A DNA stretch of 17,104 nt from a virus (Duplodnaviria > Heunggongvirae > Uroviricota > Caudoviricetes): the IMG/VR virus record IMGVR_UViG_2534681701_000012; one strand, 5' to 3'. The first letter of the stretch is position 1, and each line of letters opens with the position of its first letter. The notes under the pieces are model-generated. The model was not told where the DNA came from and made no database searches. It saw only the letters and a list, made by a program, of their open reading frames with translations. Position numbers and translations under genes: made by a program. Positions 1,422-11,900 of the stretch are shown here, piece by piece.

Positions 1422-3365
1422 TTAAAAATCAGCCTGACTCGGGATCAGTTTTTGCCAGATAACTGAAACGTATTTTGCCTGGTAACGGGCGTCATCAAGT
1501 GCATTATGGCGCTCACCTTCGAATGGAATAGCCGTTCTGGCATCGAAGTCTATGGCTTTCCCCAGCTCAACGATTGTGCGTACATCGCGATCGTTGTAGT
1601 AACGCCACGGGCAGGGGATCCCCTGCCGTTCGTATGAACGGCGCAAAATCGTGTTGTCGAAGTTGGCTCCATTTCCCCAAACCTGAACAAAAAATTCACC
1701 GGAGTTTTCGTCGATAAATTCCCGCAATTGTAACAGTGCATCATCTAACGGGATTTCATCGGTCATAATGGCAGATTGCGCTTCGCGTGATTGCTTAAGC
1801 CACCATTTAATGGTGTCCCGATCAATGACTCCGCCAGCAGTTTCCAGATCGATAGTCTTACTAAATTCCGGTCCCATATCTCCGGTTTGCGGATCGAAAA
1901 ATATTGCACCTATTGAGATGATCGGGGCATCAGGATTTTTTCCCATGGTTTCAAGGTCGATCATTAGATGGTCACACGTCCTGCTGGTGGATGTGATTTC
2001 TTGATGACCGTTCACCTTAATTGAGTGATCTGCCGTCTCGCCAGTTTCATTATCGCTATCGTGATGCTGATTGCCGTCAGTGTTCTCCTTGTGTGGATGT
2101 TCAGCGCCTTCCATTTCCTCCGGATCATCTTCCTGAACTTCAACCTGATACTCTTCATCGAATGTTTCCTGGTATGTTGCGTCGCCCATCACCGCGCCAC
2201 AATCAGGGCAGTTGCCGCCGCCGGTCTGACCGCAGGCGGTGCAGACTTTTTCCACTTCCTGTTGCGCCACTGGTTCAGGCTGTTTCGTTTCTGGCTCGTT
2301 TTGTAACGCATTTGGGCTGTTTTGTTCCGCTTTCTGGCCGTTCTGTTCCGTTTCTTGCTGGTTCTGATTCACTGAATCGCGGGTTTCAATCCCCTTCACC
2401 CATTTCGGATCATTCGGGTCGCTAATCCCTGCAACAAATTCACCACGTGATACAGCAAGCAACTTATTGGCGTCAGGCTGGCTGATATTGGCTGCCTGCA
2501 TAATTTTGTTTACTTCGTCAGCGGTAACTTTTACCGGCTCTGGTTGTGCGATCGTGTCAGATGCACCAGTATTTTGTTGTGAACCTGAGTACGTGCCGTT
2601 TTTACGTGCGAAGTATTCCTCTTTTGTGATTTCCGTAGCTCCCAGGGCCAGTGCTTTTTCCAGACCAGAAAGTTTGTTTGCGCGACCGTATTTTTCGCCG
2701 TCCTTATCGGTGAAAAGGAAGTAGAACGGTCCCTCACGCTCTACAGATGGTTCGTCTTCCACTTCGCATTCGGTTTTTTCGTTGTCCGGCATTGCCGTTT
2801 CCACTGCATCAGTTTCTGGTACTGGTGACGGGAGAGTACCAGCTGTGCCCTGATTTGTTCCTTCGTCATCTTCAAACACGCCCTTGGTAGTCAGGTATTC
2901 AGTGATGTATTTGTTCAGTGCTACGGGATCTTTGTGAATGTCGATCGGACGCTCACGGACAAGGCCAAAAATAGTCTGACGGTCGTAGCGAACGGCATCG
3001 GGTTGTTTGCGCATTGATGCGGAAATGCGCTTCCAGTCTTCGCGATCTTTGTCGATAACTTCATTTTTTGCCCAGCGATGGATGCTGCCGTCAATGTTTC
3101 CGGTATCAATATCGCCAGGCCAGAGAGCGTAGGCCAGTTCTTCATCCAGCGTTTTCCATGTCTGCTTGTATTCGCGACAAATGGCGGCAGTGACTGGGTT
3201 GATTTTTCCTGCTGAGTTTTCAGTGTTCTGTTGATTGACTCTGGCGCTGGCGAGATCAACAACAGACGTGTATTTTCCAGTCTCTTTGCGCTCTGCGTCC
3301 TGCCGTTTTTTCCAGTTACTTTTTCCAGTTACGTAATTCAGCCTGAATTTCGGGCCATTTGGCAC
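1422..3365 (-). CDS. Putative 3'-5' exonuclease (DnaQ/DEDDh domain at C-terminus) with zinc-ribbon and acidic linker
   Basis: 647-aa ORF. C-terminal ~190 aa carry Exo I/II/III motifs (MIDLETMG, WGNGANFD, HNALDDARY). Central CTACGQTGGGNCPDCG is a CxxC...CxxC motif. Long D/E/Q-rich low-complexity middle region. The 5' end overlaps the upstream ORF by 50 nt. Confidence 0.8.
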   Translation of the reverse strand: MPNGPKFRLNYVTGKSNWKKRQDAERKETGKYTSVVDLASARVNQQNTENSAGKINPVTAAICREYKQTWKTLDEELAYALWPGDIDTGNIDGSIHRWAKNEVIDKDREDWKRISASMRKQPDAVRYDRQTIFGLVRERPIDIHKDPVALNKYITEYLTTKGVFEDDEGTNQGTAGTLPSPVPETDAVETAMPDNEKTECEVEDEPSVEREGPFYFLFTDKDGEKYGRANKLSGLEKALALGATEITKEEYFARKNGTYSGSQQNTGASDTIAQPEPVKVTADEVNKIMQAANISQPDANKLLAVSRGEFVAGISDPNDPKWVKGIETRDSVNQNQQETEQNGQKAEQNSPNALQNEPETKQPEPVAQQEVEKVCTACGQTGGGNCPDCGAVMGDATYQETFDEEYQVEVQEDDPEEMEGAEHPHKENTDGNQHHDSDNETGETADHSIKVNGHQEITSTSRTCDHLMIDLETMGKNPDAPIISIGAIFFDPQTGDMGPEFSKTIDLETAGGVIDRDTIKWWLKQSREAQSAIMTDEIPLDDALLQLREFIDENSGEFFVQVWGNGANFDNTILRRSYERQGIPCPWRYYNDRDVRTIVELGKAIDFDARTAIPFEGERHNALDDARYQAKYVSVIWQKLIPSQADF

Positions 3366-6081: not shown

Positions 6082-6543
6082 CTACTGGTTACGTTTCTTT
6101 AGTGCCAGCATGTTCTCGAAGGCTTCCTCGTAGAGCTTGTTTAGTCCACGTAGCTGGTTAAGGAGTTTGGCTTTTTCTGACGCAGGTAGAATCTCGAAGA
6201 GGTTAAGTAACTCTGCCTGTTCTTCATTGACCAGCCTCCATCCTTTGCCTGAAAAGTTATCATCATAAGTATCTGATGATCTTACATAATTCATTAAGTC
6301 TTTAAGGTCTTCTCGAATGTCCTCTGGTTTTACCTTTAACAGAGCCGCAAATTTTAGCGCAGCGTCGGTATTTACCGGTATCTTGCCGTTCAGATACTGG
6401 CTAACGGTGCCTTGAGATTCGAATCCCAACAACTCAGCCGCCAGCTCTTGAGTCAGCTTCAGCTCTTTTTTTCTTGCATTCCATGCGGCTTTTAAATTCT
6501 TGCTCGCTTCTGGAGTTGCAATCACTTCGCGTGTTTTTTTCAT
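6082..6543 (-). CDS. CI/DicA/RacR-like HTH repressor (XRE family)
   Basis: 153-aa ORF with HTH LTQELAAELLGFESQGTVSQYLNG, transcribed divergently from a Cro-like gene across a 100-bp AT-rich intergenic region. Confidence 0.85.
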   Translation of the reverse strand: MKKTREVIATPEASKNLKAAWNARKKELKLTQELAAELLGFESQGTVSQYLNGKIPVNTDAALKFAALLKVKPEDIREDLKDLMNYVRSSDTYDDNFSGKGWRLVNEEQAELLNLFEILPASEKAKLLNQLRGLNKLYEEAFENMLALKKRNQ

Positions 6544-6644
6544 ACATAGAGTTTATTTGTTTTACCAATATTATCAAAGATAGTCTGGCTATTGATCTTT
6601 AAAATTAGCGGGGCTAATATTTGCTCGAGGCATAACGTAGAAGG
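6544..6644. promoter_or_regulatory. Divergent promoter/operator region of the immunity switch
   Basis: AT-rich 101-bp spacer between divergent repressor and Cro-like genes. Contains TATCAAAGATAG and CTATTGATCTTTAAAATTAG, related to TTGATAGAGATAT at 5891-5903. Operator assignment is inferential. Confidence 0.45.
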
Positions 6645-6926
6645 TTGGCTATGAACTTAAGAGACTATTTAAAAGAGAAACATATCACCCAGCTACAGTT
6701 TGGGAAGCTAACGGGTTTATCTCAGGTGCATGTAAGTCGAGTGCTGGGGGGCTATGAAAGATTCAGCCCTGAAAAAGCATTACGTGTTGCTGAAGTAACG
6801 AATTTCGAGGTTACACCTCATGAACTCCGGCCTGATATTTACCCGAATCCAACCGACGGCTTACCTGTTGGATTCAAGGCTAACACACCAAATGCATCGG
6901 AGTTGATTCATGAAAATCAGGCATGA
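6645..6926 (+). CDS. ydaS: Cro/YdaS-like HTH protein
   Basis: 93-aa ORF with HTH LQFGKLTGLSQVHVSRVLGG, first gene of the rightward operon, overlapping the next gene start. Resembles Rac YdaS. Confidence 0.75.
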   Translation: MAMNLRDYLKEKHITQLQFGKLTGLSQVHVSRVLGGYERFSPEKALRVAEVTNFEVTPHELRPDIYPNPTDGLPVGFKANTPNASELIHENQA

Positions 6927-7335
6927 GCACATCCGCATGGCGATGAATGCCTGGGCGCATCCGGACGGTGAAAAAGTTCCGGCAGCTGAAATAACCCGGG
7001 CTTATTTTGAGCTTGGTATGACGTTCCCGGAATTATATGACGACAGCCATCCGGAAGCCCTGGCTCGCAATACCCAGAAAATTTTCCGCTGGGTGGAGAA
7101 AGACACTCCTGATGCGGTTAAAAAAATTCAGGCGTTGTTACCAGCGATCGAAAAAGCAATGCCGCCTCTGCTGGTGGCCCGAATGCGCAGCCACAGTTCA
7201 GCTTATTTTCGGGAGCTGGTGGAGACGCGGGAACGACTGGTGAGAGACGCTGATGATTTTGTCGCAGTGGCGATCGCTGGTTTCAACCAGATGAATCGTG
7301 GTGGCCCGGCGGGAAATATTGTGGTTGTGCATTGA
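6910..7335 (+). CDS. ydaT: YdaT-like protein (CII-position regulator/toxin family of Rac-type prophages)
   Basis: 141-aa ORF; GGAG Shine-Dalgarno 7 nt upstream. Sequence MKIRHEHIRMAMNAWAHPDGEKVPAAEITRAYFELGMTFPELYDD matches my recollection of Rac YdaT. Confidence 0.75.
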   Translation: MKIRHEHIRMAMNAWAHPDGEKVPAAEITRAYFELGMTFPELYDDSHPEALARNTQKIFRWVEKDTPDAVKKIQALLPAIEKAMPPLLVARMRSHSSAYFRELVETRERLVRDADDFVAVAIAGFNQMNRGGPAGNIVVVH

Positions 7336-7406
7336 CTGACAATATTCATACCGGACCGCTTCCGGTAATTCGTGAGTAAAAAGATTCGGTATCAGAAGAG
7401 GTGAGT

Positions 7407-8447
7407 ATGGCTAATGCCTGGCTCAGGTTATGGCATGACATGCCAAATGATCCTAAGTGGCGAACAATTTCCAGGGTGTCAGGACAGCCAATTGCAACAG
7501 TGATGGCGGTGTATATCCACCTTCTGGTGAGCGCGTCACGAAATGTCACGACATGTCACGGCGTGTCACTACGTGGTCACATTGATGTCACGACGGAAGA
7601 TTTAGCAAGTGCGCTTGATGTGACGGAAGAAGTAATTGATTCAATTTTACAGGCAATGCAGGGGCGGGTACTTGATGGAGATTTAATCACCGGATGGGAA
7701 AAACGCCAGGTACTGAAAGAGGACAATGGCAACGTTTCACAAACCGCGAAATCCCCGGCAGAGCGCAAGAGAGCGCAGCGCGAGAGGGAAAAATTACGAA
7801 AACAGAATGAGGGGTGTCACGACGAGTCACGCATATGTCACGACATGTCACGACGAGTCACGACAGATAAAGATACAGATAAAGAATTAAACCCCACACA
7901 TAACGCGCACGTGCGCGAGAGTGCTCCGACCAGTGAGTCGAGTGGTACGCCGTTGCAGGCAGCAGAACCTGCATCCCTGGATGGACTGAGCGAACCCATC
8001 GGGAAATTTCCGATGGTCGATGACTGGCATCCGTCGCCGGATTTTCGACGACGGGCTGCGTTGTGGGGGATGGCTTTGCCGGAGCCGGAATTTACACCTG
8101 CTGAACTTGCCGCTTTCTGGGACTACTGGGCAGCGGAGGGGAAAGTTTTCACGCAGGTTCAGTGGGAGCAGAAATTCGCCCGTCACGTAAATCACGTCAG
8201 GGCGCAGGTTAAGCCAGTCAGCAAGGGGGTAAACCATGCAGCAGCACCAGGTGGCACCGCATCACGGGCAGTTCAGGAAATTCGGGCAGCACGTGAGCAG
8301 TGGGAACGTGAAAACGGATTTATCAGCGACGGAAACGGTCTGGAAGCTGTGGGAACTCATGGGGGAGGTTTATTCGAACCGCTGGACCCAGAAGAACGGG
8401 GCCGCACCTTCGAAGCTCTGGATTGCACAGATTGGCGCGATGACTGA
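7407..8447 (+). CDS. Replication initiator / replisome organiser (functional analogue of lambda O)
   Basis: N-terminal MANAWLRLWHDMPNDPKW fits the phage replisome-organiser N-terminal motif. Iteron clusters lie inside the ORF and a P-like gene follows. Start taken at ATG 7407 (GAGGTG Shine-Dalgarno) rather than GTG 7401. The 3' end is uncertain because of the long overlap with the next gene. Confidence 0.75.
   Translation: MANAWLRLWHDMPNDPKWRTISRVSGQPIATVMAVYIHLLVSASRNVTTCHGVSLRGHIDVTTEDLASALDVTEEVIDSILQAMQGRVLDGDLITGWEKRQVLKEDNGNVSQTAKSPAERKRAQREREKLRKQNEGCHDESRICHDMSRRVTTDKDTDKELNPTHNAHVRESAPTSESSGTPLQAAEPASLDGLSEPIGKFPMVDDWHPSPDFRRRAALWGMALPEPEFTPAELAAFWDYWAAEGKVFTQVQWEQKFARHVNHVRAQVKPVSKGVNHAAAPGGTASRAVQEIRAAREQWERENGFISDGNGLEAVGTHGGGLFEPLDPEERGRTFEALDCTDWRDD
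7535..7893. repeat. Putative replication origin: two iteron clusters plus AT-rich tract inside the O-like gene
   Basis: GTCAC(G/T) repeated 6 times at 7535-7591 and 5 times at 7815-7861, spaced 10-11 bp (one helical turn). Second cluster is followed by AGATAAAGATACAGATAAAGAATTAAA. Confidence 0.6.
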
Positions 8448-8901
8448 GCAGCAAATCCGACAGGTCTGCCGCCAGTGCATGGACCGCTGCCGGGCGGGTG
8501 AAACATGGCCTCCGGACCTGGCTGAGTTTGTGGCGCTGATTTCGGAGAGCGGAGCCAATCCATTCGGTCTGACGGTGGATGCTGTGATGGAGGAGTACCG
8601 CCGCTGGCGCAATGAGTCCTGGCGATATGACGGAAGTGATAAGTACCCGTGGCCTCAGCCTGTGCTGTATCACATTTGCCTTGAGATGCGTTCAAAGGGG
8701 ATTGAGCGCCAGATGACCGAAGGGGAATTAAAACGGCTTGCAGAACGGCAGCTGACGAAATGGGCAAAGCATGTTAGTAACGGCCTGAGCGTTCCGCCAG
8801 TCCGGCGACAACTGGCGGCACCCAAACGCCCGTCGGGGCCAACGCCAATTGAGTTGCTGAAACAGGAATATGAACGCCGGAAAGCGGCTGGGTTTGTTTG
8901 A
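8236..8901 (+). CDS. Lambda P-like replicative helicase loader
   Basis: 221-aa ORF; C-terminal half (YPWPQPVLYHICLEM...GELKRLAERQLTKWAKHV) aligns by eye with lambda P (YPWKSNAHYWLVTNL...AELRRKAADELVHM). AAGGGGG Shine-Dalgarno 7 nt upstream of ATG 8236. Overlaps the O-like ORF by 212 nt; alternative starts at 8359 or 8440. Confidence 0.8.
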   Translation: MQQHQVAPHHGQFRKFGQHVSSGNVKTDLSATETVWKLWELMGEVYSNRWTQKNGAAPSKLWIAQIGAMTEQQIRQVCRQCMDRCRAGETWPPDLAEFVALISESGANPFGLTVDAVMEEYRRWRNESWRYDGSDKYPWPQPVLYHICLEMRSKGIERQMTEGELKRLAERQLTKWAKHVSNGLSVPPVRRQLAAPKRPSGPTPIELLKQEYERRKAAGFV

Positions 8902-8933
8902 GTTGAGAAGTAATTTTTACCGGGAGGAAATTT

Positions 8934-9687
8934 ATGGAGACTGTTTTTGACGCACTGAAAGCGATGGGAAAAGCCACGTCGGTAGAGCTGGCTGCGCGAC
9001 TTGATATCAGTCGTGAAGAAGTGCTGAACGAACTATGGGAACTGAAAAAGGCTGGTTTCGTTGATAAAAGCGCGTACACCTGGCGTGTGGCTGATAACAA
9101 CGTTCAGCAGGAACAGCCAGCGCAGGCAGAACTGCCGGAAGAAACCACCACAGCAACAGTAGCGAAAATCTCAGAGTGCGATTTAACCGCAACGATTGAA
9201 CAACGCGGACCACAAACGGCGGATGAACTGGCTACGTTTTTTCGGCATCACATCACGCAAAGTGGCTTCAACGCTGGCAATGGCAATCAGTAAAGGTCGT
9301 CTGATTCGCGTTAATCAGAACGGTAAATTTCGTTACTGCATGCCGGGCGATAATTTACCAGCAGAGCCGAAAGCTGCATCGGTAGCGGAAACTGATGGTA
9401 AAGCCTTTCCTCAGCCAGCCGGTGTTGCGTTACCAGTACTGGAAGCTGCAACACAGGAAGATATTAAAACCGAAACTGTGGCGGACATTGTGCAGTCGTT
9501 GCCATCGTTTACTGAAACGCAAGCGGATAACCTGATTTTACCATCGCTGCATATAGCAAATCGTGAACTGCGTCGGGCGAAAAGTCATGTCCAGAAGTGG
9601 GAACGAGTCTGCACCGCGCTGCGGGAGCTGAACAAGCACCGGGATATTCTTCGGGATATTACCGCGACCGGAGAGCTGCAGCGGTGA
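8934..9687 (+). pseudogene. Tandem winged-helix protein gene split by a 1-nt frameshift in a T6 run (possibly DUF1627-type)
   Basis: ORF 8934-9293 (GGGAGG Shine-Dalgarno) and ORF 9196-9687 overlap in different frames. Reading through T6 at 9237-9242 as T5 joins ...TADELATFF to [23 protein letters not shown], a second copy of the N-terminal wHTH-like segment [30 protein letters not shown]. Fused product would be about 251 aa. Confidence 0.55.
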
Positions 9688-11485: not shown

Positions 11486-11744
11486 ATACAGCGAACGCTA
11501 TTGGTTTAGTTGGATATTTACTGTGCCGGACAAAAACGGTTTGCAGGGAAATCTTAGTTAAGTAGAATGACTGTGGGTGCTTGAGGCTATCTGTCTCAGG
11601 CATGAACACCAAAAGGCAGATAGAGAAAAGCCCCAGTTAACATTACGCGTCCGGCAAGACGCTTAACATTAATCTGAGGCCATATCTATGCTCTACACAC
11701 GTAGGTTAGCCTCTTACGTGCCGAAAGGCAAGGAGAAGCAGGCT

Positions 11745-11900
11745 ATGAAGCAGCAAAAGGCGATGCTAATCGCCCTGATCGTCATCTGTTTAACCGTCAT
11801 AGTGACGGCACTGGTAACGAGGAAAGACCTCTGCGAGGTACGAATCCGAACCGGCCAGACGGAGGTCGCTGTCTTCACAGCTTACGAACCTGAGGAGTAA
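11745..11900 (+). CDS. hok: Hok/Gef-family membrane toxin (HokD/RelF-like)
   Basis: 51-aa product MKQQKAMLIALIVICLTVIVTALVTRKDLCEVRIRTGQTEVAVFTAYEPEE has the Hok signature (TM helix, RK..LCE.R, EV..F.AYE). AGGAG Shine-Dalgarno 9 nt upstream. Confidence 0.85.
   Translation: MKQQKAMLIALIVICLTVIVTALVTRKDLCEVRIRTGQTEVAVFTAYEPEE

Follow-up and report, generated by a model that had tools for sequence, protein, structure and literature searches.

The two clusters of short direct repeats found inside the replication initiator gene of an Escherichia coli prophage (IMG/VR virus record IMGVR_UViG_2534681701_000012; 17,104 nucleotides, the whole of which is called here the window) are likely to be iterons for the initiator encoded around them and, together with the AT-rich tract that follows the second cluster, would constitute the prophage origin, with replication of the theta type (circle to circle). 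As is generally the case for iteron-containing theta origins, at least three phased direct repeats were present beside an AT-rich element, and both were conserved at the DNA level. Both arrays and the AT-rich tract were located inside the open reading frame (ORF) 7407-8447, whose features were as follows.

7407-8447 (+ strand): replication initiator gene, 346 amino acids, with a predicted N-terminal winged-helix domain, a disordered linker and a C-terminal DnaT-like domain
7407-7706 (+ strand): coding region of the N-terminal winged-helix domain (residues 1-100), presumed iteron reader
7535-7592 (+ strand): putative iteron array 1, GTCAC in six direct copies spaced by 10-11 bp, coding for residues 43-62
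7617-7626 (- strand): single inverted unit, GTGAC at 7620-7624 on the + strand
7816-7862 (+ strand): putative iteron array 2, GTCACG in five direct copies spaced by 10-11 bp, coding for residues 137-152
7863-7893 (+ strand): AT-rich, purine-rich tract, presumed DNA-unwinding element, ACAGATAAAGAT twice and then AATTAAA, coding for DKDTDKELN
7904-7917 (no strand): perfect 14-bp GC-rich palindrome CGCGCACGTGCGCG, just 3' of the AT-rich tract
8007-8207 (+ strand): DnaT-like C-terminal domain (residues 201-267), Pfam PF17948, E value 5.8e-17

The GTCAC word was found on the + strand at 7535, 7545, 7555, 7565, 7576 and 7587 in the first array (spacings of 10, 10, 10, 11 and 11 bp) and at 7816, 7826, 7837, 7847 and 7857 in the second one (10, 11, 10 and 10 bp), with a gap of 223 bp between the end of array 1 and the start of array 2. 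These positions confirmed the eleven units, 10-11 bp apart and in two clusters separated by about 220 bp, that had been proposed in a first-pass annotation of the window. The sixth base of the unit had been given there as G or T, which held for ten of the eleven units (GTCACG in nine of them and GTCACT at 7565) but not for the GTCACA at 7576; the extended consensus of the units in the window was (A)TGTCACGAC. Taking the background of units elsewhere in the window (5.4e-4 per bp per strand), the Poisson probability was about 1e-12 for the six units in 58 bp of array 1 and about 8e-11 for the five units in 47 bp of array 2. The maximum in 300 shuffles of the window was 4 units per 60 bp, against the 6 observed, and Tandem Repeats Finder gave a period of 10 for both arrays, showing that they are far beyond chance. 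No other cluster of the motif was found in the 17-kb window or in the whole 40-kb genome of the phage Evi, which bears a related gene.

Relatives of the N-terminal domain (N-domain) were drawn from phage genomes and from one genome per bacterial species, giving 73 related loci, and in each locus the hexamer with the most spacings of 9-12 bp was searched for without assuming any motif. The relatives, with 34-97% identity, came from E. coli, Shigella, Pseudomonas, Aeromonas, Serratia, Bordetella, Chromobacterium, Ralstonia, Burkholderia, sphingomonads and others, and the hosts of the related loci as a whole ranged from 34 to 69% GC; the family also extends to cyanophages. Isolated phages with the module include Evi, Tritos and 640R1, and a near-full-length copy was present in about 660 of 5,426 complete E. 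coli genomes. In 49 of the 73 loci both arrays were present, at matching offsets in the gene (about 128-160 and about 350-450), and the spacer between them measured 117-340 bp across the family. Array 2 alone was called in another ten loci, which made 59 with array 2 overall; the strict rule left 14 loci without a call, and in several of these both arrays are present with a 21-bp spacing. When the hexamer was picked from the array-2 zone alone it recurred in the array-1 zone, its frequency in the flanks being about once per 4.7 kb. The core of the unit was NNN-ACG(C), starting with GTC in 31 loci, CGA in 14, GTA in 5, GGA in 3, GCA in 3 and GTG in 2, and the unit type was always identical in both arrays of a locus. 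In these sequence comparisons the two-array layout is a trait of a widespread, apparently undescribed phage initiator family and is not peculiar to this prophage. The bipartite layout, which had been called unusual in the first-pass annotation, is indeed so relative to lambda, but not as a peculiarity of the window, since it was conserved in 49 of the 73 loci.

The number of units was more variable than their type. Array 1 of the window carried a 21-bp in-frame insert (7565-7586) that contains two units and codes for seven residues (TCHGVSL), and the close relatives without this insert (L002 and L129-L133) had four and five units in arrays 1 and 2, respectively. The 11 units of the window are among the highest totals, as most loci had 5-11 (median 8). 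On these comparisons, the copy number of the unit drifts in in-frame steps. We also found an inverted GTGAC (7620), missed in the first-pass annotation, 33 bp past array 1, which many GTCACG loci keep at an equivalent offset (about 191); the inverted unit of the Ralstonia phage Hennie was GTTGC, the reverse complement of the GCAAC unit of this phage. The evidence at the DNA level is weaker for this inverted unit because the peptide encoded by it, ALDVT, is also conserved. In Erwinia phyllosphaerae (L030, offsets 159-169 and 411-421) the units overlapped at a 5-bp spacing (GTCACGTCACGTCACG) in both arrays, which is an unusual way of packing them, and in Escherichia phage 204576 (L003, locus 1501-2000) a 1-bp deletion between the arrays produced a frameshift in the initiator gene, with both arrays intact. 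This frameshift could be a sequencing error or a sign of a decaying gene.

Since the period of the arrays is 10-11 bp, successive units fall in different reading frames and the same DNA word codes for different peptides; units were read in all three frames. Among 20 non-redundant loci of the GTCACG type, the third codon positions of the array-1 core were 100% conserved (8/8), against 57% elsewhere in the domain. The invariant third codon positions of the units, together with the low G+C content at third codon positions (GC3) found in the AT-rich tract of high-GC genomes (see below), indicate selection at the DNA level. The peptides SRNVT, CH and RGH do recur in the protein, and the 21-bp indel shows that slippage occurs, as would be expected if the periodicity simply reflected a repetitive peptide, or neutral DNA prone to slippage, and served no purpose in the DNA itself. 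We found this explanation hardly credible, and it is effectively refuted by the reading of one word in three frames, which a 10-11-bp period imposes, by the invariant third positions of the core and by the joint change of the unit type in both arrays. Moreover, array 2 codes for a disordered segment that is under little protein constraint, and the loci compared were not recent copies of one sequence, judging from their protein identity of 34-87% to the window.

The AT-rich tract that had been noticed after the second cluster was confirmed at 7863-7893 (31 bp). With 23% GC, it was the 30-bp stretch poorest in GC among the first 640 bp of the gene. In nearly all the related loci the lowest-GC stretch of the gene was also located directly 3' of array 2, with GATAAA or GATACA repeats. 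For 31 loci whose genomes have 55% GC or more, codon use in the tract was compared with that in the remainder of the N-domain. GC3 was 0.19 in the tract and 0.70 in the remainder; the GAT:GAC ratio was 80:1 vs 89:103, the AAA:AAG ratio was 56:20 vs 29:76, and ACA accounted for 41 of 48 Thr codons in the tract and for 14 of 96 in the rest. Such a codon skew in high-GC genomes indicates that the Asp/Lys/Thr-rich linker follows from the AT-rich DNA, and not the reverse. In some relatives (L079 and L050, gene offsets of about 370-570) the purine-rich hexamer tract after array 2 was much enlarged, with 18 copies of CAGAAG or 10 of AGATAA. A palindrome is also present beyond the AT-rich region of the lambda ori. 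Promoter and terminator scanning of 6400-9000 gave counts at the level of chance, the two terminator-like matches being the palindrome at 7904-7917, and no Rfam match was obtained in the putative origin region when the window was scanned.

Which protein may read the units was approached through the company that they keep. The N-module of the GTCACG type was joined to at least 9 unrelated C-terminal clusters, and its neighbours were P-like, DnaC-like or primase-helicase genes. As the C-terminal partners and the neighbours vary, the units have no constant companion other than the N-domain, which is presumed to be their reader mainly because the partners are swapped while the N-domain stays with the units. 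Alternatively, the repeats could be bound by some other protein, such as a host factor or a different regulator of the phage, or could serve as a recombination or packaging signal; in favour of this, the canonical recognition helix lacks residues that track the unit type, and a mosaic recombination joint lies directly after array 2. We regard this as quite improbable, because an AT-rich tract under DNA-level selection beside phased direct repeats is a classic origin signature and because the flanking genes vary widely with a constant N-domain. In addition, the unit type differed among lineages in similar hosts, arguing against a conserved host factor, and the terminase genes of Evi are more than 10 kb away.

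The distribution of the arrays among the loci suggests that array 2 and the AT-rich tract are probably the near-universal core and the unwinding site, and that array 1 may be a common but dispensable accessory, for which both cooperative looping and regulation were considered. In the favoured two-part origin, N-terminal winged-helix domains would bind the TGTCACG units, one per helical turn and all on the same face of the helix. Once assembled on array 2, they would strain or destabilise the adjacent (GATAAA/GATACA)n tract at 7863-7893 until it opens; the DnaT-like C-terminal domain might then hold the exposed single strand, dock the P-family protein encoded downstream, or both, and the P-family protein would deliver the host DnaB. 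Array 1, 223 bp upstream, would be an accessory site, most likely one that brings further initiator into this assembly through looping or wrapping of the DNA in between. In this regard, four of the ten loci without array 1 had an array 2 of 6-8 units, the median being 4 in the loci with two arrays, and this enlargement hints at a normal contribution of array 1 to that assembly.

The same four loci, with their hint of compensation, speak against the main rival, according to which array 2 and the AT-rich tract are the whole origin and array 1 is a control element, acting by autoregulation, in which bound initiator could block the gene's own transcription or translation, or by pairing with array 2 or with a sister copy so as to limit re-initiation, as the incA iterons of plasmid P1 limit re-initiation by pairing. 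We consider it possible, though the less probable of the two. Array 1 is absent in at least ten members that keep array 2 and the AT-rich tract, it has 4 or 6 copies among close relatives in which the gene is kept, and it lies near the beginning of the coding sequence, a place at which bound protein would hinder expression; nevertheless, it has the same orientation and spacing as array 2, and no promoter-like site was found near it in the scan of 6400-9000.

Other observations weigh against the two-part origin with the N-domain as reader. The absence of array 1 in at least ten loci means that it is not essential to the core mechanism, and the AT-rich tract is short (31 bp). As the iterons are inside the coding sequence of the N-domain, the linkage between unit type and N-domain is automatic, and only the swapping of partners singles out the N-domain as reader. 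The predicted recognition helix (residues 74-84) is acidic and varies within one unit type. In the first 110 residues, the columns that tracked the unit type were only those coded by array 1 and residues 107-110, with phylogeny and coding overlap as confounding factors. The helical phase between the arrays gave a Rayleigh vector length of 0.20-0.40, with p values between 0.003 and 0.24 according to the helical repeat assumed (10.3-10.6 bp per turn), and is confounded by shared ancestry. Finally, a literature search that was thin on subscription journals yielded no description of the origin of this family or of the two-array layout, so that an older one is possible.

The columns that tracked the unit type would also fit a different proposal, in which the beta-hairpin loop coded by array 1 (residues 42-63) itself helps to read the units and both arrays are needed, initiator on the two arrays looping out about 220 bp, the coding region for the remainder of the domain, and so melting the GATAAA tract. 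If this were so, one mutation could change the DNA site and the peptide that reads it together. We think it unlikely, because the limitation of these columns to the array-1-coded residues and residues 107-110 is equally predicted by a trivial explanation, namely that the DNA word dictates the peptide, plus shared ancestry.

The product of the initiator gene is named 'DnaT-like ssDNA-binding domain-containing protein' in RefSeq and matched PHROG 1408 and 3729, 'replication initiation protein'. In the structural model its N-domain is a winged helix; a profile search of PDB sequences with the N-domain alignment gave nothing meaningful. The N-domain family is common and matched no Pfam family, and apparently no origin has been described for it. 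Array 1 codes for the loop between the first long helix and the helix-turn-helix (residues 43-62, SRNVTTCHGVSLRGHIDVTT), with a predicted local distance difference test score (pLDDT) below 50 at residues 49-53, and array 2 and the AT-rich tract code for the disordered linker (residues 137-171), the array-2 part of which is GCHDESRICHDMSRRVTT. Thus, both arrays are in parts of the protein that tolerate a sequence dictated by the DNA. The His/Cys/Thr-rich linker that the iterons had been thought to encode corresponds to array 2 only, as array 1 codes for a loop of the folded domain.

The C-terminal domain aligned with the DnaT chains 9zbt and 4ou6 of the PDB with E values of about 2e-20. Full-length DnaT identity was rejected, as the protein reached 97.8 bits against the cut-off of 201 bits of NCBIfam NF002770 and covered only profile positions 80-166; by sequence, the initiator shares a domain with DnaT but is not DnaT. 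A homologue of lambda O was rejected as well: the Pfam scan of the window protein (E value up to 0.1) gave DnaT only and not Phage_rep_O (PF04492). When 58 family members were scanned (E value up to 1), Phage_rep_O was not among the 25 families listed of the 39 matched, and Phage_rep_org_N (PF09681) gave weak matches in 2 of the 58, the best with an E value of 0.067. The coding sequence, which had been described as O-like, is therefore so by analogy but not by homology, with no Phage_rep_O match among the families listed for its members.

The window is a lambdoid (Rac/Qin-like) E. coli prophage inserted beside rspB. The gene order was integrase, excisionase, exonuclease, dicB, repressor, YdaS (cro-like), YdaT (cII-like), initiator and P-family gene, with RusA and an antiterminator further on. 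Two additional features adjoin or interrupt the initiator gene.

7865-7885 (no strand): mosaic joint, where two megablast match sets overlap at query positions 566-586
8440-8901 (+ strand): lambda-P-family gene, 153 amino acids, presumed DnaB recruiter, Pfam PF06992, E value 1.2e-15, overlapping the stop codon of the initiator gene

The product of the latter is named 'replication protein P' in RefSeq. The initiator gene up to about 7885, both arrays included, was about 87% identical to that of phages 640R1, Evi and Tritos, and from about 7865 on it was about 93% identical to Rac-type ydaU. The ydaU gene of Rac-SA53 has an unrelated N-domain and different repeats, yet the same AT-rich tract, a near-identical copy of the palindrome at the same place and the same downstream sequence. 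Since Rac-SA53 shares the AT-rich tract but not the N-domain or the repeats, the joint of the swap lies between the iterons and the unwinding element.

Matches in the plasmid database were prophages within large records, or circular temperate-phage genomes filed as plasmids. One of the latter (L162; CP137943.1, Pseudomonas aeruginosa, 50.9 kb, circular) represents the entire genome of a temperate phage, with genes for integrase, terminase and tail, in which the initiator module and a DnaB-like helicase were the only evident replication genes. This gene content is suggestive but is not proof. The initiator gene of this record was missing from the PLSDB gene table. Database copies of the E. coli initiator protein were mostly labelled 'partial', and there were up to 6 copies per genome; draft assemblies may often break at the module, perhaps as co-resident prophages share it.

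Elsewhere in the window, the only Rfam match was a full-length sok antitoxin RNA at 11575-11750 (+ strand, 117 bits). As this match extends into the beginning of hokD, annotated as a toxin gene (about 11744-11899), a type I toxin-antitoxin locus of the hok/sok kind is present in the prophage. Inside the large exonuclease ORF of the minus strand (1422-3365), a tandem repeat with a 21-bp unit (3.7 copies, 70% match) was located at 2280-2355.

An origin inside its own initiator gene is an old idea, and hence the arrangement proposed here extends the lambda/SPP1 model and does not overturn it. What it offers is an origin map that can be tested, with array 2 and the AT-rich tract as the core, array 1 as an accessory, and natural specificity variants of the NNN-ACGC type. 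These variants could explain replication compatibility or interference between co-resident prophages, and could supply orthogonal origin/initiator pairs for engineering. The gene is also a clean case of overlapping constraints, in which a protein-coding sequence carries at the same time a phased array of DNA sites.

In lambda and in the Shiga toxin (Stx) phages 933W and P27, the origin is inside the initiator gene O and P is the DnaB recruiter (PMC7466680). In origins of the lambda type, a single cluster contains four to six iterons, each of about 19-20 bp (PMC7466680, PMC8022706). As in lambda, the putative origin of the window is inside the initiator gene, with iterons followed by an AT-rich tract and a P-family gene downstream; the iterons are presumably read by the N-terminal part of the protein, with the C-terminal part turned towards the helicase recruiter, and the order after the cro-like and cII-like genes is the same. 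Unlike lambda, the protein has no detectable homology to O and its C-terminal domain is DnaT-like, the units are short direct repeats with a 7-8-bp core, one per helical turn, instead of iterons of about 19-20 bp, and there are two arrays 223 bp apart instead of a single cluster. By its iteron layout, with 7-8-bp cores 10-11 bp apart in two arrays, this is not an origin of the lambda O type. The proposal of the first-pass annotation that the window holds a lambda-like ori within O was thus sustained in that repeats and AT-rich tract are inside their own initiator gene, in a lambda-like gene position and under selection at the DNA level, but not as regards the short units, the two arrays and the protein, which is not O.

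The oriL of SPP1, with which the window agrees in its logic as it does with lambda ori/O/P, is inside gene 38 and is bound by the replisome organizer G38P (PMC5737612). SPP1 has a second, distant binding region, oriR, in contrast with the Evi genome, in which there is no other cluster. In gene 18 of phage L, six imprecise repeats of the 11-bp word TGTCCAACGGA have been proposed as the origin from sequence only (PMC8022706). Like phage L, considered here together with the P22 gene 18 origins, the window has short, helically phased iterons inside a lambdoid initiator gene, but phage L is described with a single array, and the search of phage genomes gave no relative of the N-domain of the window in phage L.

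The origins of the staphylococcal pathogenicity islands (SaPI) have iterons of 5-6 nt in 6-12 copies, arranged in two sets and read by a winged-helix domain; the AT-rich region is between the two sets, which face in opposite directions, the origin is downstream of rep, and the initiator is itself a helicase (PMC9371898). In the window, unlike SaPI, the arrays have the same direction, with all 11 array units on the + strand, the AT-rich tract comes after the second array, and the DNA between the arrays is protein-coding, so that a SaPI-type origin was rejected.

Split origins are represented by ori and crr of the satellite phage P4, incC and incA of plasmid P1, and the two-part oriC of Bacillus subtilis and Helicobacter pylori, in which the clusters flank the initiator gene. 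In these systems, two separated clusters of the site of one initiator act together by looping or in control. They use other families of initiators (P4 alpha, RepA and DnaA) and their clusters are intergenic, whereas in the family of the window both arrays are within the coding sequence.

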